Shown here: in pieces, positions 22,027-64,000 of the stretch
How positions within the stretch are numbered: position 1 is the stretch's first letter
Layout of the letters: the number at the start of each line of letters is the position of its first letter
Assembly (NCBI GenBank): GCA_903885445.1
Contig: CAISIO010000006.1
Location: 15,309-79,308, forward strand
DNA: 64,000 nucleotides
Direction: 5' to 3'
DNA from: Candidatus Staskawiczbacteria bacterium
GTDB taxonomy: Bacteria; Patescibacteriota; Minisyncoccia; Minisyncoccales; Staskawiczbacteraceae
Made by a program: the position numbers and the translations under genes
Notes under the pieces: generated by a model
Databases searched by the model: none
What the model was told of the DNA's origin: nothing
What the model saw: only the letters and a program-made list of their open reading frames with translations

Positions 22027-22057
22027 AAAAAAAGTCCGCCACCCTCCAGTAGCGGAC
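22027..22057 (-). terminator. Intrinsic terminator of GC-rich cassette A
   Basis: The stem GTCCGC/GCGGAC (22034-22039 / 22052-22057) is followed on the minus strand by T7 (plus-strand A-run 22027-22033). It lies 29 nt downstream of the ORF stop. Confidence 0.65.
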
Positions 22058-22085
22058 GATCTTGGCGAAAACCAAGACCCCTCTC

Positions 22086-23117
22086 TTATTTTTCCTCGGT
22101 CGCGGCGGCCAACTCGCGCAAAGCCACGGCTCTGATGTGCTGAGTGCCAATTTCGGGCATGGCCAAAACATAGACCTTGGCCTCGTCAAGTTGGCCGGCA
22201 CGAATCGCCCGGCGCATGAGGACGAGCAAGGCCGTGGCCTTGCGCCCAGAATCTGTGTCGGCCTCAACGACGTTCCTGAGCATTGCCTCAGCTTGGGGCG
22301 TATTGACCGCATTGGCCTGCAGAGCCCGGACCAACTCGGCAATCGGCGCCCACGCGTCGCCGATTTTGAGCGCAGCCTGAAGGCAACTGGTCACCCAAGT
22401 ATCCCAGGCCGCATCGGTCCGATTGAGCCAGGTGAGAATCTCGATTATGTGAGCAGGCCCATTGCCCTGCGCCCAGAGCACTTCAAGCGTATGACCTCGC
22501 AAGGTCTCCTTTAGAGCCAGGAAGAGAGAACCCATCGACGAGACGATGCCGTCCATACTCTGGCCAGAAGCCCCGCGCACCAGATCCGCCTTCAGCAGGT
22601 AGTAAACCTCGAGGAAGCGGGAGATGGCCTCTCCAGCCCTATCACCCATCCTCGCCGCCGTTGTGGCTGAGCGGTGCTGCGCGTCGGCAGCAACGTCGAA
22701 ACGACCCCGTTCGTTGCACCACACGCCGATTTGGTAATCCAGCAGTGTTCTGCATCGTTGCTTCCGGGTACCTTCGGGCAACTCGGAAATCATCTGCCCT
22801 AACTGTTCAATCATCCGGGCAATTGCGGCATCCCTATCTAAGTCTGCCGGTAACCGGCGTTCCCCGTTGAGAACGCCAAGCATCACGAACGCTGCTACTT
22901 CCGGCAAGGCACTCACGCCGGCCAGAATCATCCTGCAAAGCTTCGCGTATGCTCCCGGATCTTTCTCGCCTCTCGCCACCCAGGCCTCAATTGCGCATAG
23001 CAGAACGTCAGTCTGCCAGCCGGTCCGTGGATTGCGCTGGTCGGGCGAAGTCATATCGTTCTTCGCCGTGTAGACCACCAGGGCCGCCAGTGTTGCCAAG
23101 TCGTGCATTACCACCAT
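22086..23117 (-). CDS. Hypothetical all-alpha protein (GC-rich cassette A)
   Basis: 343-aa ORF at about 60% GC in a sampled 60-nt stretch, with GC3-rich codons. GGGAG lies 8 nt upstream of the ATG. The Ala/Leu/Arg-rich helical sequence has no motif I recognise. Confidence 0.7.
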   Translation of the reverse strand: MVVMHDLATLAALVVYTAKNDMTSPDQRNPRTGWQTDVLLCAIEAWVARGEKDPGAYAKLCRMILAGVSALPEVAAFVMLGVLNGERRLPADLDRDAAIARMIEQLGQMISELPEGTRKQRCRTLLDYQIGVWCNERGRFDVAADAQHRSATTAARMGDRAGEAISRFLEVYYLLKADLVRGASGQSMDGIVSSMGSLFLALKETLRGHTLEVLWAQGNGPAHIIEILTWLNRTDAAWDTWVTSCLQAALKIGDAWAPIAELVRALQANAVNTPQAEAMLRNVVEADTDSGRKATALLVLMRRAIRAGQLDEAKVYVLAMPEIGTQHIRAVALRELAAATEEK

Positions 23118-23187
23118 GAGCCAAGCTCCCGTTTCTAGAGTTTCAGATTCTGAGTTACAGACACGTACGTAAAGAACACCGGCCTTT

Positions 23188-23216
23188 ATATTATAACCAT
23201 TTTAACAATCTGTCAA
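23188..23216 (-). promoter_or_regulatory. Sigma70-like promoter of cassette A
   Basis: On the minus strand it reads TTGACA (23211-23216), N17, TAATAT (23188-23193). The predicted leader of about 65 nt contains the shared TCTG/CTAG/AAACG motif. Confidence 0.5.
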
Positions 23217-23225
23217 TATGAGTTT

Positions 23226-23672
23226 TTATTTGTTTTTTAACCCGGCGATGCTGTTTTTTATTAGCACAGAAGAACTTTGAACTTTTTCTCCCCCCACACC
23301 GTTGATTATTTTGATATTAAATTTTTTGCAGACCTCTTTCTCGCCATCTGGTATATTATTTGCATTCCTGTCCCCGCCCTTGGCAAAATAAAGGTCTCCG
23401 GGATATTTTAGGGCGACAAATTTAAGGCTTTCTGTCTGCGTTGCGTCCCTATCAATTGACAATAAAACCTCGTCTGCGTATCTCAACGCCTTAATTATTT
23501 CTATTCTTTCCTGCTCGGGCATAAAAGGGACGCTTCCTTTTATCCTTACTTGTTCATCATTGTTTACAATTACAACTAAAAAATCTCCAAGCTTTTTGGC
23601 ATCTTTTATTAGATTTATGTGGCCTATATGCAGTGGGTTGAAATATCCCGAAGTGATTATTATTTTTTTCAT
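23226..23672 (-). CDS. Cytidylyltransferase-like nucleotidyltransferase (TagD / RfaE-domain-II type)
   Basis: 148 aa. GYFNPLHIGHINLI contains the HxGH motif, and the size and layout match small cytidylyl/adenylyltransferases. Confidence 0.75.
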   Translation of the reverse strand: MKKIIITSGYFNPLHIGHINLIKDAKKLGDFLVVIVNNDEQVRIKGSVPFMPEQERIEIIKALRYADEVLLSIDRDATQTESLKFVALKYPGDLYFAKGGDRNANNIPDGEKEVCKKFNIKIINGVGGEKVQSSSVLIKNSIAGLKNK

Positions 23673-27110: not shown

Positions 27111-30100
27111 TTACTGAGCGCTTGTAGCTCTCACGTCGAGAGGCAAGTTCTGTACCAAGTATCCATTCAACCAATCAGCTGACGATGCAGTGATTGTGGC
27201 TGTATGTCCTACGGCTCCAGAGTTTGCGTCAGCACCTGTAGCTGCCATATCAGACCAGATAAAGTTGCTGGTGATGGCGTTGCCCGAGTTGTAAGCGTTA
27301 GCTAACTCCGCGAGATCGCCTCCAGTTGTGCTGGCTAATATGTAGTGCCTTTGAGTTCCGGTATAGTTTGTTGTACCTGTATCTGAACCCAAGCTTACTG
27401 ATACGCTATCTCTTCCGGCTGTGCTTACAACACTGAATGCGTTGCAAGTTGCCTTAACTGTGTAAGTATATGACTGGCCCGCTGGAATTACTTCCTCGGT
27501 GCTGCCTGCCATAGTTACATAGAAAGTTGTAGCGCCTGCGTTCTTAGTGATAGAAGCGGCTCCTGTTACGGCGTTTCCGCTTGCATCATCTATAGTAACC
27601 AATGATGTGATATCTGTTGAACCCCTGAAGAACTTGAAAGCGTTCAAAGCAGGAGTGCCTGTGCCAGATCCATTGTTGACTGTGATCGGGAAGCCCAACT
27701 GTTTCCAAGAAACTGGGCCTGCTGGATCAGCAGCAATTGTGAATTGGTATATAGATGCCTGAGCTCCTGATACAACTGAACCTCCAACGAAGCTGGCAGG
27801 AACAGTGACTGTCGGGAGCGAGTGGTAAACAATCTGTACATTGGCATCTTTTGCCAAACCATTGGTCGCGGCGACCGTATCAGAGTTTCCAGAGCTGTTC
27901 ATGTATTTGATTCCGCCTTGGCTATTCATGTATTTAACTTCGTCCAAGGTGACCTGAGTGTTGATGTAATCTGTTCCAGCTGTTGCTGAAGCAGGTGCCA
28001 AATCCAAGTAGACATCAACAAATTTTGTTGTGTTTGCCGGGACGGCAATTGACAATCCGCTGAAGTAGGCTGTGTCGTTGGCAGCGCTGATTTGCGTGTC
28101 AAACGGCCTTGTGCCTAATACAGTTGAACCATCCTTCAAAATAGCGTCGTTCATTGCGGCAGATGCTCCTGAAATGGTCTTAATCTTCATTTCTGTGACT
28201 GTAAAGGAGTCATTGGCAGCGGTAAATTGATATCTGCCTGCCAAAATCTGTTGTCCGCCGATAACGTTGCCTGTTTGAGGCGTGCTAGCAAATGCAGGTG
28301 TTAAATAACCTGATGTGAATATAATTTGCTGGCCGGTTGTGGTTGAGGTTGTGGAACCAGAATTTGTATCTGTGGCTGAACTGCCGGTTGTTCCATCAAC
28401 ATATGCTCCAACTCTGGCTGTACCGCTGGTGCTTGCATTTAAATCTGCAAAAACCATAAAGTCTTTTGTCGTGCCAGGAGCCAAACTATAATTTACAGAC
28501 CAAGTGTTTTGGTAAGCTGAAATAGTAGGCTTTGTTGTCGTTGTGTCATTGCCAAATTTTACATACAAGTTTGTTGCGTATGTGCTGGCAACAGCATTCA
28601 AGTTGACTTGAAGCGTGCTTACGTTGACTGTTTCAACACTGTCGTTGGACACTGTGAAGTGACCAATTTTGTAGTTGGTTACAGGAGCAACAGGGCTCTG
28701 GTTTGTGTACGCTGTGTACTTAGACAGAGTCAAGCTTCCCACTTTAACTGTCAAAGAATTAGCTGCGATTGTTCCGGCAGGAACTGTGGTTGTTGACGAA
28801 GATGTCAAACCAGTCGCGTTGCCTGCAAGTGTGAGCAATCTTGCTGTTAAAGTGTCGTTTGATTGTAGACCATATGTGCTGGCTGTGTAGCCGACCAAAT
28901 AATCATAGATATCGGCTTTCACTTCCAACGTGACCGGTGTACCTGGGGTAACGATTAACGAAGAACCCAAGGTGAATGTTGTGTAGAAAGGTGTTCCTCC
29001 GCCTCCTGTTGAAGCTGAGTTGCAGAACAAGGTTGATGTGCTGCCAATTTGTACTCCGTTGGCATACAAGGCACCATTCCTTAATCCTTTAACATCAGAT
29101 TGTGCGTTGGCGCAAGTAACATCAACTTTCAAACTGTCGATTTTAACCTTTTCGCCATTGGCCTTTATGATATATTTTGCCAATGTCTGGCTGGAAGCTG
29201 TATTGATAACATTTCCAGATGGAGAATCAGTTGCTTTGGTAACTGTTATTGTTCCAGAGCTGATTGTGCATCCATAAGTTGAGCTGTTATCATAGCAGTT
29301 TCTCAAGGCGCTGAAAGCTGAGCTGCTTACTACTGTTGGCAATACGTTTGCTCCGTATTGTGTATCAACGAAAGTTACATCAGCCGCTGTTTTTAATGAG
29401 AAGCTGAATGTTCTTGAAGAGCCGCCAATAAGGTCGGCTAAAACTTTAATTGGGTGGGTGCCTGTCTCCAATCTCTTTGGAGCGGATGTCAAATCAAATG
29501 TTATTTTGCCATTTGAATCTAATCCTGCGACCGCTGAACCAACTTGGACTCCATCAATGTATAATCTGAAATTTTGAATATCAGAGAAGTTGATGCTTCC
29601 AATTTCTGTTAAAGCTAATCTGGTCAAGTTAACTGCTCTTGTGCCGACAGAAAGACCATTGTGCTGCCAAACAGCGAAATCTGTTTGAGGATCAACGGTT
29701 GTTAAAGTTGGCAAAACAGATGTGGCGATTGCGCCAGCGAAGTTAACTGTGGCCAATGTGCTTGCGCTACCGATAAGGTTCATTGAATTTCCGGTTACTG
29801 GGAAATTGCCTCTTATGGAGCTGGCATTTGTTGTGATATCAGTTGAAGCAGCTAAGCTGACTCCCACTGTTTCTCCGGCTGTGCCGGTAACATCTGCCAT
29901 AACAGTTACGGTTATTGAACCGCCTGCTGGGACCATTAAAAGTCCTGTTGAATCGTTGAAAGAAACGACACCTGAAGAAACGCTGGCTGCGTCTGTTAAA
30001 CGAGTCGCGCCATTAAACAGGTATACGTTTACTAAATCTGAATCGGCTGAAACTCCTGTTTTATGAAGTTTCAATCCTGTTACAGTAACTTGGGCATTAT

Positions 30101-30755
30101 CTCCGTTAACAAATACAAACTTTGCTAATGGGGCTGTTGCCTGGCCAATAACAACCGAGCTTGCTGCTGGATTGTCTGCGGCTAACATTACTTGAAGGCC
30201 TGCTCCTGTTGGGATAATTACAGGTACGCCATTTCCGCAAGACTGTCCTGTTATCGGGCTAAAGCCTGATGTTGAGGTGCAACCTTGTGGCAAGGTGGTA
30301 ACTGGTGTTCCGGATGTTCCAAGAAGCGCGTTTAATGCGGCTCTTGTTTGTGGTCCAACCTGATTGGCTGGCACCATTCCTTTTGCTGCCTGGAATTGTT
30401 TAACAACTGCTAAGGTTCTTGTACCAAAGTAAGATGTTTCCATTCCCGGTGATCCTGCTCCTGATGCTGCAAGAGTATAACCGTTGGTGTTCAAAAGAAC
30501 TTGCAGACATTTTACGTCTGATCCTGTTGAACCAACTGTTAAGTTTCTTGTAAATGTAACTCCGCTGCAAGCAACTACTCCGGTTGGAACCGGGGTGGCG
30601 CCTGTGCCTCCTTGCAAAGACAATAATTGCGACTGTAAGGCCTGTATTTGGGCCAATAAGTCTGACAACTGGTCAGCTTGAGTTACTCCAGGAACAGCTA
30701 CTGCAACCATGGCTAAAGCCAATATGGTTGTTATAATTGTTCTTTTAATACTCAT
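27111..30755 (-). CDS. Giant secreted/cell-surface protein with peptidoglycan-binding domain (S-layer-like candidate)
   Basis: 1214 aa. It has an N-terminal anchor, the coiled coil QLSDLLAQIQALQSQLLSLQ, and a PG_binding_1-like segment (GSTGSDVKCLQVLLN...GPQTRAALNALL). About 1000 aa of T/S/A/G/V-rich beta-type sequence follows. Confidence 0.6.
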   Translation of the reverse strand: MSIKRTIITTILALAMVAVAVPGVTQADQLSDLLAQIQALQSQLLSLQGGTGATPVPTGVVACSGVTFTRNLTVGSTGSDVKCLQVLLNTNGYTLAASGAGSPGMETSYFGTRTLAVVKQFQAAKGMVPANQVGPQTRAALNALLGTSGTPVTTLPQGCTSTSGFSPITGQSCGNGVPVIIPTGAGLQVMLAADNPAASSVVIGQATAPLAKFVFVNGDNAQVTVTGLKLHKTGVSADSDLVNVYLFNGATRLTDAASVSSGVVSFNDSTGLLMVPAGGSITVTVMADVTGTAGETVGVSLAASTDITTNASSIRGNFPVTGNSMNLIGSASTLATVNFAGAIATSVLPTLTTVDPQTDFAVWQHNGLSVGTRAVNLTRLALTEIGSINFSDIQNFRLYIDGVQVGSAVAGLDSNGKITFDLTSAPKRLETGTHPIKVLADLIGGSSRTFSFSLKTAADVTFVDTQYGANVLPTVVSSSAFSALRNCYDNSSTYGCTISSGTITVTKATDSPSGNVINTASSQTLAKYIIKANGEKVKIDSLKVDVTCANAQSDVKGLRNGALYANGVQIGSTSTLFCNSASTGGGGTPFYTTFTLGSSLIVTPGTPVTLEVKADIYDYLVGYTASTYGLQSNDTLTARLLTLAGNATGLTSSSTTTVPAGTIAANSLTVKVGSLTLSKYTAYTNQSPVAPVTNYKIGHFTVSNDSVETVNVSTLQVNLNAVASTYATNLYVKFGNDTTTTKPTISAYQNTWSVNYSLAPGTTKDFMVFADLNASTSGTARVGAYVDGTTGSSATDTNSGSTTSTTTGQQIIFTSGYLTPAFASTPQTGNVIGGQQILAGRYQFTAANDSFTVTEMKIKTISGASAAMNDAILKDGSTVLGTRPFDTQISAANDTAYFSGLSIAVPANTTKFVDVYLDLAPASATAGTDYINTQVTLDEVKYMNSQGGIKYMNSSGNSDTVAATNGLAKDANVQIVYHSLPTVTVPASFVGGSVVSGAQASIYQFTIAADPAGPVSWKQLGFPITVNNGSGTGTPALNAFKFFRGSTDITSLVTIDDASGNAVTGAASITKNAGATTFYVTMAGSTEEVIPAGQSYTYTVKATCNAFSVVSTAGRDSVSVSLGSDTGTTNYTGTQRHYILASTTGGDLAELANAYNSGNAITSNFIWSDMAATGADANSGAVGHTATITASSADWLNGYLVQNLPLDVRATSAQ

Positions 30756-31668: not shown

Positions 31669-32178
31669 CTAAGCTTCTTTAATCATGTCCTTCAAATCAT
31701 TTAATCCCCTGTGCAACATCACCCTTACTGTTCCCGCTGGCTTACCCAATAATTCTGCTATATTCGCTATGGGCATATCTTCTAAATAATGCCAGATTAT
31801 TATGTCCTGGTGCTCTTTTTTTAGCTTTGCGATTGCTTTTTTAACTATCCCTATATCGGCGCTCAAGATTGCCTTATCCTGGGCATTTGTCCCAGGGTCA
31901 ACCATTTCTGGACCGTTATCTGCCAAGACCACTTTTGTCCTGCCCTTTTCCCTGTAATAATCAACAACCGCATTCCTGGCTATTTGATACAGAAAAGCGC
32001 CTGGATTTTTTATCTCAGAACCAGGGTTTTGGAACGCTTCCCACCCCTTGGTAAATACCTTAGATGTGACATCTTCAGCCACCTCCTGGGAATTAACCTT
32101 TAGGTAAACAAACCTATATATTTTATCGATATATTGGTCGTAAATCCGTCCAAATTGTTCGTTTAGGCTATCTGTCAT
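31669..32178 (-). CDS. ECF-type RNA polymerase sigma factor (sigma-70 family, group 4)
   Basis: 169 aa with region 2 (IYRFVYLKV...AEDVTSKVFTKGW) and region 4 (IIIWHYLEDMPIANIAELLGKPAGTVRVMLHRGL). Confidence 0.85.
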   Translation of the reverse strand: MTDSLNEQFGRIYDQYIDKIYRFVYLKVNSQEVAEDVTSKVFTKGWEAFQNPGSEIKNPGAFLYQIARNAVVDYYREKGRTKVVLADNGPEMVDPGTNAQDKAILSADIGIVKKAIAKLKKEHQDIIIWHYLEDMPIANIAELLGKPAGTVRVMLHRGLNDLKDMIKEA

Positions 32179-40088: not shown

Positions 40089-40177
40089 GTTTGATAAGTA
40101 ATAATTTAAGTACTAATTATAATATAATACGCATTAAAGATGTATTATGATTATAATATTTTTCCCCGCCAAAATCA

Positions 40178-40204
40178 ATAGCACTCTCAAGTCAAGAGTG
40201 ATAA
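40178..40204 (-). promoter_or_regulatory. CIRCE-like operator (HrcA binding site) upstream of clpB
   Basis: aTAGCACTC-N9-GAGTGaTAA compared with the consensus TTAGCACTC-N9-GAGTGCTAA. It lies about 90 nt upstream of the clpB ATG, next to a TTGATT-N17-TATAAT promoter. Confidence 0.65.
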
Positions 40205-40209
40205 TTAGT

Positions 40210-40238: not shown

Positions 40239-40259
40239 ATCAGAAGAATTGAACATCGC

Positions 40260-47525: not shown

Positions 47526-47568
47526 ATTATGTCTATTATACCTTATATATAAAAAAATTTTAACACGC

Positions 47569-47597
47569 TTGAATATTATCAAAATATGTGTTATTGT
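47569..47597 (+). promoter_or_regulatory. Candidate sigma70-like promoter of cassette D
   Basis: TTGAAT (47569-47574), N17, TG-extended TATTGT (47592-47597). The shared GTCTGC-GCTAGAC-AAAACGG motif starts 7 nt downstream. Confidence 0.4.
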
Positions 47598-47663
47598 ATC
47601 TATGTCTGCGCTAGACAAAACGGACGGCGCGCATAGGTCGGACATTTACAAAGGAGTCTTTTT

Positions 47664-48116
47664 GTGAGCGAGTACCTTGCACTACGAAGAAACCCATCGA
47701 CCCTTGTGATTGTCTGTAGCCAACTCTCTTACGAGGGATGGGCAACACAAGAACTCGGGCTTGGGCCGCTGGACGTCAAGCTAATTAGTGTAGCGGGCGG
47801 ACCCGCTGCACTAGCACACGGCGACCTGGTAGCAACGGACTATACCAGGATGTGTGAGTGCGTCAGCTTTCTTCTTGCCGAATTCCCATCCATTCACACC
47901 GTGATAGGCATCAACCACGGCAACAACGGAAGAAAGGGCGGCTGCGGCTACTACGAAAAAGTACTCAAAATCGTGGGCGGAGAGAAAAGCGATCTACCAA
48001 AAATAGCTCGCCAGCTAGCTATTCTCGCCAAAGACAAAACGATTAGGACATTCTACGCCGGTCTCGTTGAGACTGGCGGGTCCAAAGTCGTCTTCGAAGA
48101 AGTCTTCGCGGCATAA
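47664..48116 (+). CDS. Hypothetical protein (GC-rich cassette D)
   Basis: 150-aa ORF with a GTG start and AGGAG (47652-47656) 7 nt upstream. It is GC-rich with GC3 codons. The spacing VIVCSQ...ISVAGG...HGNNGRKGGCG loosely recalls beta-carbonic-anhydrase ligand order, but this is not convincing. Confidence 0.65.
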   Translation: MSEYLALRRNPSTLVIVCSQLSYEGWATQELGLGPLDVKLISVAGGPAALAHGDLVATDYTRMCECVSFLLAEFPSIHTVIGINHGNNGRKGGCGYYEKVLKIVGGEKSDLPKIARQLAILAKDKTIRTFYAGLVETGGSKVVFEEVFAA

Positions 48117-48139
48117 ACGTGTCGCCTCGACGACGTAAG

Positions 48140-48169
48140 CCGCAGGCATCCGCTTGCGGTAATTTTTTT
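48140..48169 (+). terminator. Intrinsic terminator of cassette D
   Basis: The stem CCGCAGGC/GCTTGCGG (48140-48147 / 48152-48159, one G-U pair) is followed by taaTTTTTTT. The T-run overlaps the comEC stop codon (48168-48170). Confidence 0.65.
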
Positions 48170-49649
48170 ACACAAAATTTTGGTTGTATTTTTTGTTCAA
48201 GAACCTGGTGCCGAAAATAATTACAAAATATAAAACAACCAGCCAAATCCAATGGACATTCTGAAAAGTTTTCATCGCCCATGGCTGAGAAAAATAATCT
48301 ATAACTTTTACAAAATAAGTTAATAAAAACCAGCAAGGAATTGATAAAATCCAGCCTAAGGTGTTGGAAAAAATTCCGATGATTGAAACTAAAAACCCTA
48401 GAATCATTAGCCACTCGACAATAGGCAAGACCAAAAGATTGGTTATTGGGGCGACAAAAGAAATATTTCCAAAATTATAAACCATCACCGGCAAAGTAAA
48501 AATTTGTGCCGCAAAGGTTGTTGAAATAATTCCTATTAAGTTTTCCGCTTTTTCTTTTGTAAAGACTTTTATGATTCTTTTGATTAACGGCTCTAAATAT
48601 ATAAGCCCGATTACAGCCAAAAATGAAAGCTGAAAACCGACGTCATACAGCAAAAGCAAGGGATTTACCAAGAGCATCACGGCGCACGCCATAACAATTA
48701 CTCTCGGTCCCATGGTCTGCCGGCCAAATTTTTGCGCCAAAAGATAAAGCCCGCCCATTATCCCCGCCCTTACGCCAGACGGAGGCAATCCGGTTAAAAT
48801 AATATAGATAAAAATAAAAAACACTGCTATGTAAAACGCTTTTCCCCGGCTAAATCCCATTGCCAGCAACAAAGACATCACAATCGCGCTCAAGATAACA
48901 ACATGGGTGCCCGATACGGCAATAATGTGCCGAAGCCCGGTTATATTGAGTTTTGTTTTCAAATCATTTGTCATTGCTCCGTTGTCACCTAAGATAGTGC
49001 CCTCTAAAATCGAACTCTGAGGCGGTAAAAAACTATGCTCAATGCTTGCCCTAATTTTTTGCTTAAAAAATAATATCTTTTCGTAAATCCAAGAAAAAAC
49101 ACCATAATCATGTTTTTGAGAAACCAACTCTATTTTTGGAAAACCCATAACAGAATATATATGGTCTTTCATCAAATAATTCCTGTAAGAACCGGAAAAT
49201 GTGCCATCTTCGTTTTCACCAGGAGCTTCCAATTTTCCCGTAAGTTTTATTTTGTCTAAATATTTGTATTCCGGATATTTATTTATCGTAGTCAAAACCG
49301 TACTTTCTCCAACTCTAACTTTTATCTTTTGGTAGGCGTCTCTCACGTCGGGCTCGCTGGAAATTATCCCGGTCATAACAAATTGGCCCTTTCCGTTATA
49401 TTTGCTCAACCTGTCATTGGCTATATTAAACTTTGTAATTTGCGATCTTAAAATCCCAAAAATTAAAAATAAAACACAAAAGCCAAAAACAAAGCTAATC
49501 TTCTTGAAAAAAACCGAGGCGAAAATAAGCAGTATTCCAAAAATTAAAATCCCCCAAACAAAAATTTGAGGAATTTTGATTACCGACTCCAAAAATACTC
49601 CCGCGATAAATAATATACAAAGAAAAAATAATATCTTAGACGGACTCAT
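48168..49649 (-). CDS. comEC: ComEC/Rec2-family competence channel protein (no MBL domain)
   Basis: 493 aa with an N-terminal OB/DUF4131-like segment and a polytopic competence domain (GLRHIIAVSGTHVVIL). It ends without the C-terminal metallo-beta-lactamase domain found in long ComEC proteins. Confidence 0.75.
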   Translation of the reverse strand: MSPSKILFFLCILFIAGVFLESVIKIPQIFVWGILIFGILLIFASVFFKKISFVFGFCVLFLIFGILRSQITKFNIANDRLSKYNGKGQFVMTGIISSEPDVRDAYQKIKVRVGESTVLTTINKYPEYKYLDKIKLTGKLEAPGENEDGTFSGSYRNYLMKDHIYSVMGFPKIELVSQKHDYGVFSWIYEKILFFKQKIRASIEHSFLPPQSSILEGTILGDNGAMTNDLKTKLNITGLRHIIAVSGTHVVILSAIVMSLLLAMGFSRGKAFYIAVFFIFIYIILTGLPPSGVRAGIMGGLYLLAQKFGRQTMGPRVIVMACAVMLLVNPLLLLYDVGFQLSFLAVIGLIYLEPLIKRIIKVFTKEKAENLIGIISTTFAAQIFTLPVMVYNFGNISFVAPITNLLVLPIVEWLMILGFLVSIIGIFSNTLGWILSIPCWFLLTYFVKVIDYFSQPWAMKTFQNVHWIWLVVLYFVIIFGTRFLNKKYNQNFV

Positions 49650-55967: not shown

Positions 55968-56091
55968 TTATATATTTTAACTCATTTTTGAAATAAAACA
56001 AAACTTCGCCAACTCACAACTTTTTACTTTCATTGAATTTTAATTATTAAAGAGTAGTCTGAAGCTAGCCCCCAAAAACGAAAGGCTGTAT

Positions 56092-56577
56092 ATGAAACTC
56101 GTAGCGATACCGATTAAAATACGGTTCAACGGAGCAACTCCTTTATCCGAGCTATATGCGCAGCTCGCAGAGCACATGGTCTCTGCGCCGTTGTACAGCT
56201 TCTTTGAGAATATGGACAATGAGCGCCTGCACTTCTGCGATACTATTGAAGAAAAGGAGATTATAGTCGTACGATTTGGAGCGTCAATGAACGAAGTGGA
56301 GGCCTTTGCCACCCTAGAAGGAACACGCTACAAAGAGAACACCCTCGTAAGCGCCAATTTAAGAGAGGCGTTAACGTGTGCGGCAGATGAAAAGTATTGG
56401 ACGCAGGGCACAAAAGGCAGAGTCGTAGTTCTGAGGGCCAAACGCGAACCGCCGTTGTCGAAAGTGGACTTCTTGTCATTGTACAAGGGTCCCGGAGAAA
56501 AAAGGGTCATAAAGCCTTACGCCGTGAAAATATTCCCGGCAAGTACTTGGTTCTTGGCAAAAGAAAAGGAATCCTAA
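56092..56577 (+). CDS. Hypothetical protein (intermediate-GC cassette E)
   Basis: 161-aa ORF on the minority strand at about 47% GC by eye. AAAGG lies 6 nt upstream of the ATG. A hairpin, GGAATCCT/AGGATTCC (56568-56599), spans the stop, and a T7 run lies at 56637-56643. Confidence 0.6.
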   Translation: MKLVAIPIKIRFNGATPLSELYAQLAEHMVSAPLYSFFENMDNERLHFCDTIEEKEIIVVRFGASMNEVEAFATLEGTRYKENTLVSANLREALTCAADEKYWTQGTKGRVVVLRAKREPPLSKVDFLSLYKGPGEKRVIKPYAVKIFPASTWFLAKEKES

Positions 56578-56641
56578 TCCTGAAAAGGAAAAGGATTCCA
56601 GCAGATATGGCGTTGTTCCCTCCGGAGCCCCGCCTCTTTTT

Positions 56642-59338
56642 TTAATAACTCCAATTAAAATCGCCTTTTGTTGTTGCAATCTTTAAAACCTTCAACCCGC
56701 CCAATGACTTCAAAATTATTCCCGAAGAATCTTTTCCGATTAATTTTGTATTTTTCCCATCGTAAACCGCCAAAATATTATAATTCTTTTTTGATTGGAC
56801 GTACTGGAAAAGCGCTTTCAAATTTTTGTTCTTGTCATAAAGCCAAACAAAAGCCATAAGATTTTTACTAATATCAGTTGCAACTCCATTATATTTTAGA
56901 GATTTGATCTCTCCCGACATTGTAATCTTTCTGTTTTTATCTTTCAATTTTATTTCTGTTATATTTCCGGCCTGGTCTGTTAAAGTAATCGTATCGTCGC
57001 TATCTTTAACTAAAACCAAAGAAGCATCTGAAATATTATCTGTTCCTGTAAATTTTAAATCTTTGACATTTTGGTCAAACTGAATCATAACTTCCGGCGC
57101 GGTTTTATCTATAACAAAATTTATTGTTTGTTCCGGTTCATTGTTGCCCGCTTTATCTGTGGCAAAAAATGCCAAAACGTGTTTGCCTTCTTTTGAAACT
57201 GAAAAATTTACAACCTCTCCGCTGACTGTTCTGTAATCGTCTCCATCTAATTTATATTCCACATTTAAAACTCCAGACAAACCATCGGTTGCTTTTATGT
57301 TTATCGCTACTTCGCTTCTATAAAAATTTGTCTGGCCAGCAGTTCCCGATAAGGTCGCAACGGAAACCGGGGGCAAGACATCTTCTGACGACGCGGCGTC
57401 AACAGTTGCCGACGGTAAAATTACTTGTTCCTGCGAAGCTGGAGTTTGTTTAACGGCCAGAGAAGTTGTGCCATCTGCATTATTTATGTTTACATTTCCG
57501 GTCAAACTGGTTGTAACCGGCAAGTTGCTAAACACTTCTGTATTTGTTATTTGGCTATTATTTATATCCTGGCTTTTGATTGTGTAAGTCCCCGCATCGG
57601 TTCCTTGCATATTTATATTATAAATTTGCCCGCTGTCTTGCGGAAGATAAATAAATTTATGGTCGCCCAAAATTTCAAAGTCGGCATTTGGAATTTCGTT
57701 TATAACGTTTCCATCATCAGCCAAGCCCAATCTATTTCCATTTTGATCTGTCACAAAAATATTCACCGGCGAAAAAACAGAAATCGCTTTTCCGTTCAAA
57801 CTACACTTTGAAATATCCTGCGTGATTAAATCATTTCCCCAAAAATCTTTTCCCGTGTTTAAATTACTGCCTGATATTAAATTAACAATCTCTTGCCTAA
57901 TTCCATCTTCGCTTGGCATTTTACCGTGGTCAGAGACTAAAGCGTAGTATTTATTATTCTGGTCAATCGGCAAATTTGTCGCAGATTCCAACGGAACTGT
58001 GTTGTCGCCAGCATTATACTCTACCGTTGCGTAACCTATACTATTAATGCCCAGTGGAGTTTTAGTTTTTGTTTCTATAAGCCTCGTAATTGTTCCCGAT
58101 TTGCATCCATCTATTGCATAAAGACTGATTCCCGCGCTGCTTAAATTAAAATCATCGAAAGCTTGAGTGTGCAGATTTCCCGAATTAGTTAATGCCTGAG
58201 AATTAAGACCGTGGTCGCCAGTTAAAAAACTTTTCGATTCAGCATAATTTAAATCTTTTTCAATCGGCTGTCCGGAAGTAAAATCAATTTGCGAGACAAA
58301 ACTTCCTTTCACATTAAAATATTTCTGCGTCGGCAAAAGGTCATAAACCGCCGGCATATTTTGCGATATCTTTTTAATTTCCTGGTCATTTAAACCCGGC
58401 ACATCAAGATTATCTCCCTGCACCAAAACTTTTATTGCTTTCGGCGCGCCGGTATTTGGCACTCCAACAAAAACTGCTTTCCCGATATGATTATCTGCCG
58501 GATGATTCATTGCATAACTTTTCACAATCAATCCTCCCAAACTATGAGCGATAACATCAACTTTGCTAGCTCCGGTTTGCGTTAAAATATCCTGTATTTT
58601 TTTCGCCAACAAATCCGCATTCGTTTTCCCGTCATTATATTTCCCCGAAGCTCCATATCTCCAATCATACGGAAACGTAAATAAATCTTGGTTTTCTATA
58701 TACCCTTGACCGGTGAATTCTGCAACGATGCCGTCGTAGTAATCATATTTGATTGGTCCTATATTCTTTGAACCTAAAATATTGTAAGTATACACCGTCG
58801 GTTCGCTTGGCATTAGGATGCTATTAAAAGATAGCGCGTCCATAAAGTTATCGGAGTTAAGAGGATTAACCATCCTGGCAACATCTGCCCACAATAATTC
58901 ATTTCCATTTTTCATCTCTGTTCCTAATAATCCCGGCACAATTAAAACCGGCGTTGTACTTTTAATATTATTAAAGGTGCAAATAATGTTTTCAAAAGGT
59001 TTTGGAGAAAAAATTACACTGTCTGGCTGATAAAAAAATACTTCGCTTGGATTATTACTTGCGCAAAAGATACTGCCAATTTTCAAACCGGAAACATTGT
59101 TTTGAGCAAGAGAATAAGAACCGTACGGGCCTAAAATAGTAATGGTTTTCGAAGCAGATAAATTGCTTGTTTGTAAATCAAATGCCTGAACATTTTGCAA
59201 ATTAAAATGGAAAGGAGCATCAGCTCCTTGCGTGTTAACGATAACAGTTACATTCGCCGTGGGAACCGGCATAGATTGGGAAGACGCCGGCGCGAAAATA
59301 ACGACTAAAGCTAAAAATATTATAATTTTGTTTTTCAT
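56642..59338 (-). CDS. Secreted alpha/beta-hydrolase lipase/esterase (LCAT/PGAP1-like) with C-terminal Ig-like domains
   Basis: 898 aa with a signal peptide and the nucleophile elbow VIAHSLGG. It has a long beta-rich C-terminal half with repeated Ig-like segments. Confidence 0.6.
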   Translation of the reverse strand: MKNKIIIFLALVVIFAPASSQSMPVPTANVTVIVNTQGADAPFHFNLQNVQAFDLQTSNLSASKTITILGPYGSYSLAQNNVSGLKIGSIFCASNNPSEVFFYQPDSVIFSPKPFENIICTFNNIKSTTPVLIVPGLLGTEMKNGNELLWADVARMVNPLNSDNFMDALSFNSILMPSEPTVYTYNILGSKNIGPIKYDYYDGIVAEFTGQGYIENQDLFTFPYDWRYGASGKYNDGKTNADLLAKKIQDILTQTGASKVDVIAHSLGGLIVKSYAMNHPADNHIGKAVFVGVPNTGAPKAIKVLVQGDNLDVPGLNDQEIKKISQNMPAVYDLLPTQKYFNVKGSFVSQIDFTSGQPIEKDLNYAESKSFLTGDHGLNSQALTNSGNLHTQAFDDFNLSSAGISLYAIDGCKSGTITRLIETKTKTPLGINSIGYATVEYNAGDNTVPLESATNLPIDQNNKYYALVSDHGKMPSEDGIRQEIVNLISGSNLNTGKDFWGNDLITQDISKCSLNGKAISVFSPVNIFVTDQNGNRLGLADDGNVINEIPNADFEILGDHKFIYLPQDSGQIYNINMQGTDAGTYTIKSQDINNSQITNTEVFSNLPVTTSLTGNVNINNADGTTSLAVKQTPASQEQVILPSATVDAASSEDVLPPVSVATLSGTAGQTNFYRSEVAINIKATDGLSGVLNVEYKLDGDDYRTVSGEVVNFSVSKEGKHVLAFFATDKAGNNEPEQTINFVIDKTAPEVMIQFDQNVKDLKFTGTDNISDASLVLVKDSDDTITLTDQAGNITEIKLKDKNRKITMSGEIKSLKYNGVATDISKNLMAFVWLYDKNKNLKALFQYVQSKKNYNILAVYDGKNTKLIGKDSSGIILKSLGGLKVLKIATTKGDFNWSY

Positions 59339-59725: not shown

Positions 59726-59787
59726 GTTTTACTATTTTAATTTATATTTATTAATTATACCAACTCTGAAAGATTTTTTCTACAAAC

Positions 59788-60065
59788 AAAAAAAGACCCC
59801 ACTTCTGCAGGTTAGGTTTGCTACGCGGAGGAGTGCGTAGCGAGAGGAAAAAACCAATGCGAGCAGATGTGGGGACATATTTAGAGAGGACACGGCCAGG
59901 AGTTTGGGGCGAAAGGACGCTCATTCATCGAACGAAGCGAACAATCACACCGAAGGCACCGGAACTATCAGAGTGGAGGGGTTTTGAAGGTCTGTTGGCC
60001 TCCACTATTCTGTTACGTGCCCCTATCCTGGGCGTGTCCTCATGGGACGAATGAACTGTCTATAC
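59788..60065 (-). ncRNA. Candidate structured non-coding RNA of unknown class (about 270 nt)
   Basis: GC-rich region with no ORF. Nested long-range helices: 59886-59900/60027-60041 (14 of 15 bp), 59906-59910/60019-60023, and hairpin 59973-59979/59999-60005. The 3' stem 59797-59808/59863-59874 (11 of 12 bp), with inner hairpin 59820-59826/59835-59841, is followed by T7 on the minus strand. Confidence 0.45.
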
Positions 60066-60068
60066 CTA

Positions 60069-60097
60069 TTTTTAACAAAAGCCAGACCGCACGTCAA
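60069..60097 (-). promoter_or_regulatory. Candidate promoter of the structured RNA
   Basis: On the minus strand it reads TTGACG (60092-60097), N17, TAAAAA(T) (60069-60074). It lies between the cassette F terminator and the first helix. Confidence 0.35.
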
Positions 60098-60116
60098 TGG
60101 GCCGACTTGGTAAAAC

Positions 60117-60143
60117 AAAAAAAAAGCAAACCCGAAGGCTTGC
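60117..60143 (-). terminator. Intrinsic terminator of cassette F ORF
   Basis: On the minus strand GCAAGCC-uucg-GGTTTGC (60126-60143) is followed by T9 (plus-strand A-run 60117-60125). It lies 28 nt after the stop. Confidence 0.7.
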
Positions 60144-60170
60144 ACGTTGCGTCTCACAAATATTGGCGCC

Positions 60171-60857
60171 CTACCCGATAGGAATGAATCCTCTCTCGCG
60201 GAGGGTTTGTAAAAGTTCGATGTTTCCGTCAACTTCGCCCAATGCCGCTGTCGGCTCACCGTCGTAGTCGAGCAGCACCTCCCAGGCAAGCGGGTCTGCC
60301 ACTGGCAACCACAGGCCTGTACCGGTATTGGCACACCACCACTTCCTCCCGCAACTGCAGGCGAAACACCTCTTGGGGAACTTCCCACCGGTGGCTTCTT
60401 GCCAATCAAATACCTGGCCCTCTTGTGTCGCCATCAGTTGGATGCATAAGCAATGACCGGCGTAGAGCTTGCGGGGTCCCGTGTATCTCTGCGCTTCAAC
60501 CAACGCCTGACCGGTCCGAAGGAAAAACTCGATCTGCGTGGCGACGAATGCCTCCATCGCCTCGTTGACGGCGGTGTTGGCAGTGAAGAGGGCTGCGCCA
60601 TCAGCGCCGACCCAGCAGAATTTGTCGCCCTCTTTGGGCCGTGAAACAACCCATTGACTCGTTTCATTGAGAACAAGCTCCTCGGCGACCCAGGGATCAT
60701 TGAATTCGATCCCGTGCTCGATGTAGTCCTTGCCGGTTATGCGCCCCCTAGCGACTCTTTCTCCTTCCGCCCCATCGATTGACTCAATCGTGAAATGGAT
60801 GCAATGGCATCCGGGGACCAATTCGTACTCTGGGCCTTTCCACTCGAATAGCAACAT
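60171..60857 (-). CDS. Hypothetical Cys/Trp-rich protein (GC-rich cassette F)
   Basis: 228-aa ORF that is GC-rich with GC3 codons. GAGGAG (60864-60869) lies 6 nt upstream of the ATG. The Cys clusters GCHCIH, GHCLC and CFACSCGRKWWC suggest metal binding. I recognise no family. Confidence 0.7.
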   Translation of the reverse strand: MLLFEWKGPEYELVPGCHCIHFTIESIDGAEGERVARGRITGKDYIEHGIEFNDPWVAEELVLNETSQWVVSRPKEGDKFCWVGADGAALFTANTAVNEAMEAFVATQIEFFLRTGQALVEAQRYTGPRKLYAGHCLCIQLMATQEGQVFDWQEATGGKFPKRCFACSCGRKWWCANTGTGLWLPVADPLAWEVLLDYDGEPTAALGEVDGNIELLQTLRERGFIPIG

Positions 60858-60908
60858 GACCGTCTCCTCGTGTTTTTTTCTCGTTTCACTGGCTAGCGAC
60901 GATAATAT

Positions 60909-60937
60909 AATTTAAAACTTTTATTAACTTTTGTCAA
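60909..60937 (-). promoter_or_regulatory. Candidate sigma70-like promoter of cassette F
   Basis: On the minus strand it reads TTGACA (60932-60937), N17, TAAATT (60909-60914). The shared GTC-GCTAGCC-AGTG-AAACGAG motif (60880-60900) starts about 9 nt downstream. Confidence 0.45.
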
Positions 60938-63036: not shown

Positions 63037-63040
63037 TTTT

Positions 63041-63658
63041 TTAAAATTTAGAAATTGATGTTAATGGAAAAATTCTAAACGCCGCTTTGCCGATTATATA
63101 TTTTCTGGACAAAACGCCCCACCTTCTTGAATCATACGACTCGTTTCTATTATCTCCCATAACAAAATATTGGTCTGGGGCTAAAGTAATTTTTTCCGGC
63201 GACAACGACATTGCAGAGCCGTCAAAGCCGAACGTCTGTAACCCCGAGGGCAGATATTTCTCGCTTAAAACAACTGTTTTCCCGTCTTTGATTATTTCCA
63301 CCTTGCCGTTTACCACATCAACTGTTTCGCCCGGAAGCCCGATAACTCTTTTAATAAATCTTTGTCCTGCGTAATTTGGTATAAAACTTGCGTCAAAAAC
63401 AACTACGTCTTCCCTTTGCGGAACTGAAATCCTGTAAGAAATTTCATCAACAATCAGATAGTCTCCAGTCTCAAAGTTTGGAGCCATGGAAGCTCCGCTT
63501 ACGATAAATGGCTGGAATAGAAAATACCGAATCGGAGCTACTATCACAAAAGCGACAACCGCTATTTTGACAATCTCCCAGACAAAAGGCAGATATTTTT
63601 TGACTATCCCTTCTGATGTCTTCTTTTCTTCGATTTTATTAGGATTATTTTCTTCCAT
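63041..63658 (-). CDS. lepB: Signal peptidase I
   Basis: 205 aa with a TM anchor, the catalytic Ser box SGASMAPNF, the Lys box RFIKRVIGLPGE, and GDNRNESYDSR. Confidence 0.85.
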   Translation of the reverse strand: MEENNPNKIEEKKTSEGIVKKYLPFVWEIVKIAVVAFVIVAPIRYFLFQPFIVSGASMAPNFETGDYLIVDEISYRISVPQREDVVVFDASFIPNYAGQRFIKRVIGLPGETVDVVNGKVEIIKDGKTVVLSEKYLPSGLQTFGFDGSAMSLSPEKITLAPDQYFVMGDNRNESYDSRRWGVLSRKYIIGKAAFRIFPLTSISKF

Positions 63659-63721
63659 TTTTATTACTCACTGTATCACACTTTTTTCCTTGTTGCAATA
63701 GGGCGAAAAAGCGGTTTAAAT

Positions 63722-63757
63722 AAAAAAAGACGGCCTGGCGTTCGCGGACGCCAGGCC
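63722..63757 (-). terminator. Intrinsic terminator of GC-rich cassette G
   Basis: The perfect 9-bp stem GGCCTGGCG/CGCCAGGCC (63732-63740 / 63749-63757) is followed on the minus strand, after GTC, by T7 (plus-strand A-run 63722-63728). Confidence 0.75.
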
Positions 63758-63780
63758 AAAGGATGATATAATAACGTCTA

Positions 63781-64000
63781 CTAGTGACGCTTAAAGCTAC
63801 GGAGCTTCATGTGCCCAGGCGGGGCCTTGGGCCCTGGCTTTCTACGGTTGACCTGATCGGCCAATCCCCGATCGCGGACTACTTGCAAGAACGCGCCCTT
63901 GAATTGGTCGAACGGAAGTTCAACCAATTCTTTGTGTCCCATCACAAGGTCTTTGTAGACCGGCTCCAGCCGCTGGTCTAGGGCGTCGGGCCTTACATGC
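63781..64000 (-). CDS. Hypothetical protein, C-terminal fragment (GC-rich cassette G; gene continues beyond window end)
   Basis: Not in the ORF track. My hand translation of the minus strand gives 72 stop-free codons: ...HVRPDALDQRLEPVYKDLVMGHKELVELPFDQFKGAFLQVVRDRGLADQVNRRKPGPKAPPGHMKLRSFKRH, ending at TAG (63781-63783). The terminator lies 24 nt downstream. Confidence 0.55.
   Translation of the reverse strand, partial: HVRPDALDQRLEPVYKDLVMGHKELVELPFDQFKGAFLQVVRDRGLADQVNRRKPGPKAPPGHMKLRSFKRH

Follow-up and report, generated by a model that had tools for sequence, protein, structure and literature searches.

Seven short GC-rich segments (A to G), each built around a single open reading frame, lie in the window analysed here, a stretch of 64,000 nucleotides, and the question is how they came to stand in the AT-rich backbone of a Candidatus Staskawiczbacteria (Parcubacteria/CPR) chromosome. 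The initial annotation read them either as repeated captures of foreign genes, derived from a host or a virus, or as a dispersed regulon. The segments, here called cassettes, are spread over 42 kb and are not arranged in tandem.

Composition and surroundings of the cassettes

The GC content of the window is 0.40. Backbone ORFs have a GC content of 0.30-0.45 and a GC3 of 0.28-0.47, and the corresponding values for the cassette ORFs are 0.60 and 0.69 (A), 0.53 and 0.58 (B), 0.51 and 0.53 (C), 0.53 and 0.56 (D), 0.48 and 0.56 (E) and 0.57 and 0.66 (F). Sliding-window GC blocks were found at 22024-23163, 40208-40790, 41006-42007, approximately 47600-48176, 56109-56525 and 59787-60886. Promoter-like and terminator strings were present exactly at the boundaries first given for the cassettes, whose coordinates were accurate. 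At four-fold degenerate sites all seven segments, including the partial G, are GC outliers relative to 47 backbone genes, with z values of 4.4 (A), 2.3 (B), 2.3 (C), 2.0 (D), 2.7 (E), 3.6 (F) and 3.4 (G), and at two-fold sites both C/(C+T) and G/(G+A) are shifted too. Amino acid use is also altered, with more Ala and Arg and less Lys, Ile, Asn and Phe. The compositional claim holds both for total composition and for synonymous sites; cassette E, previously called intermediate, is weakly GC-rich in total yet a clear outlier at its synonymous sites. The RSCU of A, D and F shows no correlation with that of the backbone (r = -0.13 to -0.03), whereas C is the most backbone-like cassette (r = 0.42).

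Between 20.7 and 64 kb all cassette neighbours with a Pfam match belong to ordinary cellular families (ClpB, HtrA, ComEC, NrdD/G, FtsA/Z, YbeY, HisRS, signal peptidase and others), and a few neighbours have no match. No tRNA or tmRNA genes were found in the window by ARAGORN.

Comparison with mobile elements and viruses

No integrase or transposase was present among the ORFs of 20.7-64 kb, and no convincing flanking repeats were found at the cassettes, which confirms what had been noticed by eye. The flanks of D and E hold short AT-rich matches only, and A is flanked by a 39-nt direct repeat that is 72% identical and coincides with two promoters. The cassettes have no repeat family in common, and their 3′ ends are simple terminators of a hairpin and a T-run that differ in sequence. 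An IS element, transposon or MITE was rejected, as neither a transposase domain nor terminal inverted repeats nor target-site duplications were encountered. Integron gene cassettes are likewise tightly packed units of one ORF each, usually with no known function. They are however promoterless, end in attC and stand in tandem beside intI, whereas here most units come with a promoter-like site and intrinsic terminator of their own, are dispersed and have no integrase. Promoter-like -35/-10 sites are indeed present at A, C, D and F, as had been proposed, and the cassettes have no attC site in common, so that an integron origin was rejected as well.

Prophage or virus-derived genes were also rejected, and the viral source first considered is not supported: the only PHROG match is that of C to a generic sigma factor family, and IMG/VR contained no relatives of A, B, C, E or F. 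Neither phage nor plasmid records contained a relative of E, and plasmid records contained none of B. Membership of an anti-phage defence system was rejected because the sole PADLOC match is a partial one between the sigma domain of C and MzaA (56 bits), with no partner genes present; the NCBIfam model of MzaA scores C at 81 bits against a cut-off of 800. The statement that no known mobile-element class explains the cassettes holds in so far as there is no element here, but hotspot turnover and single-gene transfer are known patterns.

Cassette C is an imported sigma factor gene

Cassettes B and C both lie in the htrA-clpB interval (37389-43395, minus strand; htrA 42079-43395, clpB 37389-40088), in which a CIRCE-like operator (40178-40204) precedes clpB. 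Cassette C (41004-42077, minus strand) contains a sigma-70 family ORF (41057-41995), with a promoter-like site at 42049-42077, one base after the htrA stop, and a weak terminator at 41004-41038. The product has sigma-70 regions 2 and 4 (Pfam Sigma70_r2, PF04542, 2.2e-11; Sigma70_r4, PF04545, 6.5e-9; both above the curated cut-offs) and an N-terminal extension of about 130 aa, and has no equivalog-level NCBIfam match. The named sources among its best 119 homologs, which cover 86-98% of the length, are all Phycisphaerae/Planctomycetes, and two homolog contexts (L107 and L108) have 53-61% GC and MlaE/Mpo1-like synteny. Since full-length relatives with 47-56% identity sit in GC-rich Phycisphaerae/Planctomycetes genomes, the best hits and their source names document C as evidently the product of inter-phylum transfer from a GC-rich Planctomycetota (Phycisphaerae-like) lineage. 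A C-like gene is absent from the loci fetched from relatives, which span htrA ±10 kb. The codon usage of C is already largely ameliorated.

Cassettes A, B and D are old residents

Cassette A (22027-23216, minus strand) contains an ORF of 343 aa (22086-23117), a promoter-like TTGACA-N17-TAATAT (23188-23216) and a terminator of two hairpins (22027-22079). A phmmer search gave 144 representative matches, mostly of 330-350 aa, and the family of about 140 clusters has invariant residues; the closest relative among the 1.84 billion representatives searched is 45% identical. The AF2 model is all-helical with a pLDDT of 95.6, and its Foldseek matches are the TPR proteins LGN/Pins and Rap/NprR (TM about 0.45-0.59, 8-16% identity), with weak profile matches to LGN, so A is predicted to be a TPR solenoid. 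RRNPP-type receptors (Rap, NprR) and LGN/Pins scaffolds resemble A in their all-helical TPR superhelix and similar size. RRNPP receptors however have an effector or HTH domain and a cognate secreted-peptide gene, and A has the TPR fold with no HTH domain by Pfam; the likeness is that of the generic TPR fold. In relatives the synteny of A is kept, with Wzy_C, a cytidylyltransferase, an 82-aa ORF and Polysacc_synt_2 in L090 and L093. In 18 of 19 metagenomic loci the A gene has a higher GC content than its flanks, and the offset is kept in every AT-rich background among related genomes. The GC3 of the family is about 0.5 and independent of the GC3 of host or flanks (0.27-0.66; r = -0.04), so that in GC-rich hosts (GC3 0.57-0.66) it lies below the flanks. 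A deviates through fewer A-ending codons.

Cassette D (47569-48169, plus strand) contains an ORF of 150 aa (47664-48116), a promoter-like TTGAAT-N17-TATTGT (47569-47599) and a terminator (48139-48169) that overlaps the comEC stop. D adjoins the ComEC gene. The D family has 20 members (about 19 relatives), all encoded on the opposite strand in the comEC-DUF6938 gap, which varies from 1 to 2610 bp among relatives. In 20 of 20 loci the GC3 of D lay above that of the flanks, by 0.137 on average (p = 2e-6); it also follows flank GC3 (r = 0.67), and the deviation is through C-ending codons. When the family profile was compared with PDB, the top matches were exclusively beta-carbonic anhydrases or CS2/COS hydrolases, with E-values of 0.013-0.2. 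The family motifs CxDPR and GHxDCGYY, which occur in that order, match the Cys/Asp/Arg and His/Cys motifs of the zinc site in beta-class carbonic anhydrases. D differs in its weak E-values (0.013 or worse), its size of about 150 aa and the loss of the Asp-Arg dyad in the window copy and the L002 copy, which also have an insertion between His and Cys; no Pfam Pro_CA match was obtained. D may, weakly, be a divergent beta-carbonic-anhydrase-like Zn protein. Of the view that no product except the sigma factor could be assigned, the part on C is right, and A and D have now gained these readings.

Cassette B (40210-40790, minus strand) contains an ORF of 176 aa (40260-40790) encoding a Cys-rich protein, with a terminator at 40210-40238 and no clear promoter of its own. 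The longer segment first proposed, 40210-40850, does hold this GC-rich ORF. Between B and C lies a small AT-rich transcription unit (40818-40994, minus strand; promoter-like site 40960-40994, terminator 40818-40848). No match to B was found in Pfam, PHROG, PADLOC, NCBIfam or PDB. An ortholog, also GC-rich and 27% identical, is located in the matching htrA-clpB slot of the closest relative, L001.

Synonymous sites are near saturation between the window genome and its closest relatives, and for this reason the offsets of A and D are not left over from a recent transfer. As judged from sequence comparison, the same slots or synteny in relatives show A, B and D to be apparent old residents of the lineage that evolve much faster than their flanks. 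The proposal of repeated capture of foreign genes consequently stands for C and fails for A, B and D.

Cassettes E, F and G and a non-coding unit

Cassette E (56033-56643, plus strand) contains an ORF of 161 aa (56092-56577), a weak promoter-like site (56033-56060) and a terminator (56609-56643) that abuts the stop of an LCAT/lipase-like gene. Searches of the family libraries, PDB, plasmid and phage records, viral contigs and the fetched loci all gave no match to E. Of cassette G (63722-64000, minus strand, partial) the 3′ end of the ORF (63783-64000, 72 codons) is visible, with a terminator at 63722-63757 and a GC content of 0.64 at four-fold sites; the fetched loci contained no homolog. Provisionally, E and G are orphans in the collections searched.

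Cassette F (60117-60937, minus strand) contains an ORF of 228 aa (60171-60857) with a Cys-rich C-terminal half, a promoter-like TTGACA-N17-TAAATT (60909-60937) and a terminator (60117-60143), and its AF2 model was poor (pLDDT 53). Two full-length homologs, 46% and 39% identical, are at or near native composition (GC 0.49 in a contig of 0.45, and 0.32 in a contig of 0.31), and a homolog of the N-terminal domain follows clpB in L008. By these comparisons the F family appears to be small and to be GC-rich in the window copy and not elsewhere. Cassettes E, F and G are possible imports.

The structured RNA that had been assigned to cassette F is real, but it is not part of that cassette. It forms a GC-rich non-coding unit 3′ of F (59788-60097, minus strand; transcript about 265 nt) with its own promoter-like TTGACG-N17-TAAAAT (60068-60097) and terminator (59788-59811). 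The unit has an MFE of -102 kcal/mol (z = -6.1 against shuffles) and a 16-bp closing stem in which 59886-59901 pairs with 60026-60041, and it contains no ORF longer than 78 aa. No Rfam family was matched at gathering thresholds, and in E-value mode only a chance-level IMPDH match was obtained (17 bits, with the gathering score at 95). The fetched loci contained no similar sequence.

Alternative explanations

Recent, independent capture of all seven cassettes from GC-rich donors, with composition not yet ameliorated, would explain the planctomycetal relatives of C, the synonymous-site deviation in seven of seven, the much higher GC content of F in the window than in its homologs and the concentration of GC-rich ORFs in the variable fraction of the clade. 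It is nevertheless unlikely, being contradicted for A, B and D by orthologs at matching positions with synonymous sites at or near saturation. D moreover tracks host GC3 while remaining above its flanks in every genome, A stays near 0.5 even in hosts that are richer in GC, and even the nearest relative of A is distant at 45% identity. The sole proven import, C, is the most ameliorated cassette, and the strongest deviation is that of A, D and F.

A less probable alternative, and one that we regard as improbable, is that the cassettes form a dispersed regulon, either under sigma factor C or through rare GC-ending codons that tie translation to particular tRNAs, as TTA codons depend on bldA in Streptomyces. 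In its favour are the sigma factor among the cassettes, the separate transcription of most of them and the way codon usage in A, D and F departs from the backbone. However, the cassette promoters fit the housekeeping consensus TTGACA-N16-18-TATAAT, comparable matches occur at backbone genes and no extra motif common to the cassette promoters was seen. Relatives keep GC-rich A, B and D orthologs, although the loci fetched around D and B have no C-like sigma factor, and codon tuning leaves the shift in amino acid use unexplained.

That the GC-rich blocks represent structured non-coding RNA or have RNA elements embedded in them, with the ORFs as by-products of the high GC content, is very improbable. 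The unit at 59788-60097 is of this kind, and long chance ORFs arise on several frames of GC-rich DNA, but the reading is contradicted for A, C, D and F by the invariant residues and confident model of A and by homologs of C, D and F at the protein level. GC content varies with codon position as it does in coding sequence, folding z against synonymous shuffles is the same as for backbone genes and A has no local synonymous-site conservation.

Independent ENA assemblies of other samples reproduce B (L109 and L110) and D (L111 and L112) with their junctions at 99.8-100% identity, D being 100% identical over both, and A with an unchanged spacing of 108 nt to the upstream gene. Because the contexts of A, B and D are reproduced in this way, the joining of GC-rich fragments of other organisms into a CPR contig, which the sharp compositional boundaries and the planctomycetal similarity of C might suggest, can hardly be credited, all the more as MAGs of unrelated studies carry A, B and D orthologs at matching places and every block lies between an AT-rich promoter and a terminator, both fitted to the adjoining genes to the base.

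Probable gene turnover between conserved flanks

The reading we prefer, and consider rather probable, is that the cassettes are a heterogeneous group of accessory genes, dispensable and each transcribed on its own, in the few gene-turnover gaps between conserved housekeeping operons, with no new mobile element. Among 31 relatives the htrA-clpB gap varies from 141 to 5068 bp, and its content changes in nearly every one; it is empty in L005 (259 bp) and elsewhere contains mostly unrelated GC-rich ORFs in either orientation. GC peaks in relatives coincide with filled gaps, and the slot fillings are mostly mutually unrelated, 9 of 10 having no Pfam family. In 40 related loci a GC excess (above 0.08) was found in 25% of locus-unique ORFs, 16% of ORFs present in 1-4 loci, 8% of those in 5-14 loci and none of the 220 present in at least 15 loci (Mann-Whitney p = 1.5e-5). 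In most bacteria hotspot content is AT-richer than the core.

The two slots compared, htrA-clpB and comEC-DUF6938, combine conserved flanks with variable content and thus qualify as horizontal gene transfer hotspots with core genes on either side, a known pattern (Oliveira et al. 2017, PMC5635113). They resemble those hotspots in concentrating variable, mostly unrelated genes in conserved-gene intervals and in rapid turnover in which no mobile element can be recognised, consistent with exchange through flank recombination. They differ in that each unit is one gene, in a genome of about 1 Mb, that the content is GC-richer than the core, and that D and A are long-term residents and not transients. 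Single-gene transfers into streamlined Patescibacteria, some of them from other phyla and including transcription-related genes, are described in PMC12455944, and cassette C fits the account given there; the parts of that source consulted describe neither GC-rich single-gene blocks nor families that stay GC-rich after long residence.

The GC excess would have two sources, the donor composition of imports into a recipient of 40% GC and, for A and D, a gene-specific compositional equilibrium. This equilibrium would most likely come from GC-biased repair at frequently recombining loci, or from selection on codon choice. GC-biased gene conversion normally has a small effect in bacteria, with a higher GC3 in the more frequently recombining genes (Lassalle et al. 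2015, PMC4450053), and it offers a neutral route to a gene-specific offset that outlasts synonymous saturation. Unlike the effect described there, the offsets of A and D are 0.1-0.3 in GC3, reach amino acid composition and differ in kind; since D shifts C-ending and A shifts A-ending codons, one common force for both is doubtful.

Under gene turnover in such gaps, gain, replacement and loss of genes would follow DNA uptake and proceed by recombination within the conserved flanking sequence, and no dedicated element would be needed. The genes that survive would carry an ordinary host-type promoter and their own terminator, and this would be the reason that the segments look like neat cassettes.

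Seven GC-rich cassettes in a CPR chromosome

The window has a GC content of 40.1% and nearly all of its ORFs are on the minus strand. HtrA (42079-43395) shares 70-75% identity with proteins from MAGs of Candidatus Staskawiczbacteria, and the order NrdD - radical SAM - ComEC - DUF6938 - GH2-like - GT2 - HtrA - ClpB is conserved in dozens of relatives, which together identify the backbone as a Parcubacteria/CPR chromosome, as the initial annotation had guessed. The seven GC-rich single-gene segments singled out there, cassettes A to G, are real compositional features. At 4-fold degenerate sites all of them lie 2.0-4.4 SD above 47 backbone genes (G over its visible part, 63783-64000, minus strand), and 2-fold sites move in the same direction. 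GC and GC3 are 0.60 and 0.69 in the ORF of A (22086-23117, minus), 0.53 and 0.58 in B (40260-40790, minus), 0.51 and 0.53 in C (41057-41995, minus), 0.53 and 0.56 in D (47664-48116, plus), 0.48 and 0.56 in E (56092-56577, plus) and 0.57 and 0.66 in F (60171-60857, minus), a GC3 range of 0.53-0.69 as opposed to 0.28-0.47 in the backbone. Ala and Arg are increased and Lys, Ile, Asn and Phe decreased in the encoded proteins. The borders first proposed match GC blocks and promoter-like and terminator strings. The promoter-like sites fit the TTGACA/TATAAT consensus and similar matches precede backbone genes; in the sequence upstream of B no convincing promoter of its own was found.

In the part from 20.7 to 64 kb, ORFs of 100 aa or more were scanned against protein families and belonged to an ordinary cellular family or had no match. 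The families included ClpB, HtrA, ComEC, NrdD/G, FtsA, FtsZ, YbeY, HisRS, signal peptidase, YqeY, a native ECF sigma factor and glycosyltransferases. No integrase or transposase was among these ORFs, in agreement with the first reading. A 1214-aa ORF (27111-30755, minus) with an N-terminal peptidoglycan-binding domain has an odd composition (GC2 0.52, G in only 6% of 4-fold sites, C/(C+T) 0.55) and probably encodes a repetitive, strongly codon-biased surface protein.

Resident genes A, B and D

Chimeric assembly was rejected, as independent ENA contigs reproduce A, B and D with their junctions or spacing: B (40172-40814) and D (47524-48201) recur at 99.8-100% identity on short contigs of other assemblies, spanning both D junctions and the B/clpB junction, and on another contig A again lies 108 nt from the upstream gene. 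In four other assemblies (L109-L112) B and D are each isolated contigs of 640-706 bp that break at near-identical points just beyond the cassette, two of them terminating in 20-33 nt unmatched in the window; these breakpoints suggest that strains differ, or that coverage changes, at the cassette borders.

Orthologs of A, B and D occupy the same places in MAGs of unrelated studies. Between this genome and its nearest relatives 0.38-0.48 of 4-fold sites are identical, with 0.30-0.33 expected, and the 4-fold identity of D and B to the nearest relatives equals expectation. With synonymous sites near saturation and orthologs at the same places, recent capture of A, B and D is not sustained, and comparison of the sequences identifies all three as resident genes of the lineage. 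The excess of synonymous matches in A over its flanks is marginal only and within noise; since A is thus not measurably younger than its flanks and synonymous sites are near saturation, the compositional offsets have persisted far beyond the time in which a donor signature would be expected to decay. Codon usage (RSCU) correlates with that of the backbone at −0.10 and −0.13 in residents A and D and at 0.42 in the import C; this also counts against recent capture, as the deviant codon usage sits in the residents and not in the import.

HMMER, run in full over 1.84 billion representatives, gave 144 relatives of A, mostly of 330-350 aa, the best with 45% identity. Its predicted structure is a confident TPR superhelix (pLDDT 95.6), resembling LGN/Pins and Rap/NprR at the level of fold only. 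The neighbourhood common to the window and the loci L090 and L093 consists of a Wzy_C O-antigen-ligase-like gene, a cytidylyltransferase, an 82-aa ORF and Polysacc_synt_2, and in two other loci (L094 and L103) the A gene again follows a Wzy_C gene. In 18 of 19 metagenomic loci A has a higher GC content than the flanking sequence. Its GC3 ranges from 0.36 to 0.61 against 0.27-0.66 in the flanks, the two being uncorrelated (r = −0.04), and falls below that of the flanks in GC-rich hosts. A conserved element embedded in or overlapping A was rejected because pairwise 4-fold matching is flat along the gene (0.28-0.48). In one metagenomic locus (L087, 187-429) a small GIY-YIG domain ORF is immediately upstream of the A-family gene. 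The regions around A (21979-22007, minus, and 23185-23223) hold a 29-nt palindrome and a 39-nt direct repeat. The near-perfect palindrome, ACCCCTATTGACACCTAGTTGATAGGGGT, overlaps a promoter-like site downstream of A and may be an operator; the two copies of the direct repeat, 72% identical, are this downstream promoter region and the promoter region of A itself, and they flank A.

The ortholog of B in the closest relative (L001) is only 27% identical, with the Cys spacing kept and in the same slot between htrA and clpB, while ClpB and HtrA are 92% and 75% identical between the two genomes. TTATCACTC-N9-GAGTGCTAT (40178-40204, minus), which has the B terminator on one side and the promoter-like site of clpB on the other, closely resembles the CIRCE/HrcA operator consensus, TTAGCACTC-N9-GAGTGCTAA, which suggests that clpB may be under heat-shock control.

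Iterated search of the fetched loci gave 20 members of the D family, each situated between comEC and DUF6938, encoded on the other strand and 16-47% identical to D of the window, compared to 46-84% for the flanks; D is absent in some relatives, such as L005, L009 and L012. The family consensus contains the motifs CxDPR and GHxDCGYY, and the top PDB hits of its profile are solely beta-carbonic anhydrases and CS2/COS hydrolases, at weak E-values (0.013-0.2); the copy in the window has lost the Asp-Arg dyad. In all 20 loci D has a higher GC3 than the core genes flanking it (mean +0.137, Wilcoxon p = 2e-6), and its GC3 follows that of the flanks (r = 0.67), and by tracking its flanks at a constant offset D behaves as a resident gene. 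The excess is carried by C-ending codons, a bias that looks like translational selection. In one relative (L007) the comEC/DUF6938 slot contains two D-family paralogs in tandem (4446-4931 and 5150-5563), and a D homolog with GC3 of 0.82 occurs in a Parcubacteria MAG labelled 'viral-cat' (L039, 2186-2773).

A sigma factor from another phylum

Cassette C carries sigma-70 regions 2 and 4 (Pfam). Its best 119 homologs are full-length (coverage 86-98%, about 312 aa, identity 47-56%), and all those with a source name are from Phycisphaerae or Planctomycetes. Two of the closest are on contigs of 53-61% GC, in a conserved MlaE - Mpo1-like - sigma order beside giant ORFs. No homolog of C was present in any of the relatives' loci compared, which cover the region around htrA. 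Judged by best hits and source names, C appears to be foreign and derived from another phylum, the Phycisphaerae/Planctomycetes, and the transfer would not be very recent, since its codon usage already correlates with the backbone. The proposal of repeated capture of foreign genes thus holds for C and fails for A, B and D. In contrast to foreign, GC-rich C, the native ECF-type sigma factor (31669-32178, minus) has the usual backbone composition (GC 0.41). The alternative proposal, a dispersed regulon under C, is unsupported: the promoters are generic, and the relatives' D and B orthologs are GC-rich although the loci fetched around them contain no C-like sigma.

Cassettes E, F and G and two small transcription units

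Among the six complete proteins only sigma factor C was matched in Pfam, PHROGs, PADLOC and NCBIfam. Two full-length homologs of F, with 46% and 39% identity, have native or near-native composition on their contigs, and a homolog of an F domain is located after clpB in one relative (L008); structure prediction of F from a 3-sequence alignment reached a pLDDT of 53. E has no relatives in family libraries, PDB, plasmids, phages, viral contigs or fetched loci, and G has no homolog in the fetched loci.

The structured RNA first described as part of F is instead a separate GC-rich non-coding unit (59788-60097, minus) of ~265 nt that has a promoter-like site and a terminator to itself. A 16-bp stem closes its multi-branch fold (MFE z = −6.1). 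The unit matched no Rfam family, had no similar sequence in any fetched locus and may represent a novel small RNA. C is followed, and B preceded, by an AT-rich mini transcription unit (40818-40994, minus) made up of a promoter-like site, ~110 nt and a strong terminator, and within it is a 35-nt imperfect inverted repeat (40829-40912).

Slots of gene turnover and GC-rich variable genes

The distance between htrA and clpB varies from 141 to 5068 bp across 31 relatives and is 259 bp in L005, and filled gaps contain GC peaks of up to 0.64. Their ORFs vary in orientation, are mostly mutually unrelated and in 9 of 10 tested cases had no Pfam family. When ORFs of at least 120 aa were counted in 40 related loci, a GC excess above 0.08 was found for 25% of those unique to one locus, 16% of those in 1-4 loci, 8% of those in 5-14 loci and 0 of 220 in 15 or more loci (Mann-Whitney p = 1.5e-5). 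By these shares seven cassettes per 42 kb are normal for the clade, in which GC richness is a mark of the variable gene fraction. The accessory genome of bacteria is usually AT-rich, the opposite of this pattern.

Discussion

The idea of a new cassette system dissolves into known processes: the turnover of genes at hotspots, a single transfer between phyla, and genes of the lineage itself that evolve fast. In the slots, genes would be gained, swapped and lost through recombination in the conserved flanks following DNA uptake; the gene for ComEC adjoins D. Such a mechanism matches the hotspot pattern of gene turnover known in other bacteria (PMC5635113) and is consistent with single-gene transfer in Patescibacteria (PMC12455944). 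The GC excess may in part be donor composition, as almost any donor would be GC-richer than a recipient of 40% GC. For A and D a gene-specific equilibrium is favoured, brought about either by selection on codons or by GC-biased conversion where loci recombine (PMC4450053), and a single cause is disfavoured because their signatures differ.

Viral relatives of A, B, C, E and F were not found in IMG/VR, nor relatives of E in plasmid or phage records or of B in plasmid records. Membership of an integron, transposon or prophage was rejected, with no recombinase among the scanned ORFs, PHROG matching only sigma C, and a search for terminal repeats and target duplications flanking the cassettes giving nothing convincing. 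One common donor was rejected as the cassettes are unlike one another in codon usage. Selection for RNA structure was rejected by comparing ORF folding energies with synonymous-codon shuffles, the cassette z-scores (0 to −2.8) lying within the backbone range (+1.1 to −3.3).

Beyond these processes stands the observation that resident families stay GC-rich, or at a fixed GC3, whatever the host genome. Staskawiczbacteria and related Parcubacteria could conceivably hold a fast-evolving accessory gene class compositionally uncoupled from the genome, a reading we consider rather unlikely. Its basis is that family A has GC3 near 0.5 across host GC3 of 0.27-0.66 and that family D exceeds its flanks by ~0.14 in each of 20 genomes at near-saturated synonymous divergence. 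If true, this reading would call for a gene-specific force that has not been described in the protein-coding genes of streamlined bacteria, such as strong GC-biased conversion at recombination-prone loci or codon usage selected for a purpose other than the cell's bulk translation. More speculatively, codons might be tuned to a GC-rich partner organism, at which the Phycisphaerae-derived sigma hints.

CPR bacteria have tiny genomes, and their gain and retention of new functions are poorly understood. A literature search gave no description of GC-rich single-gene islets in CPR. This locus shows that a streamlined CPR chromosome can incorporate single genes, even a sigma factor of another phylum, under promoters of host type and without a mobile element; these genes gather in few gaps between core operons, and the variable genes of the clade are GC-richer than the core, opposite to the usual bacterial pattern. 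The Planctomycetes origin of sigma C would be a testable clue to physical association. If the offset of A and D is due to biased conversion or unusual codon selection, it would give a handle on recombination and expression in unculturable organisms, and GC-rich islets in AT-rich MAGs would not automatically mean recent transfer or contamination.
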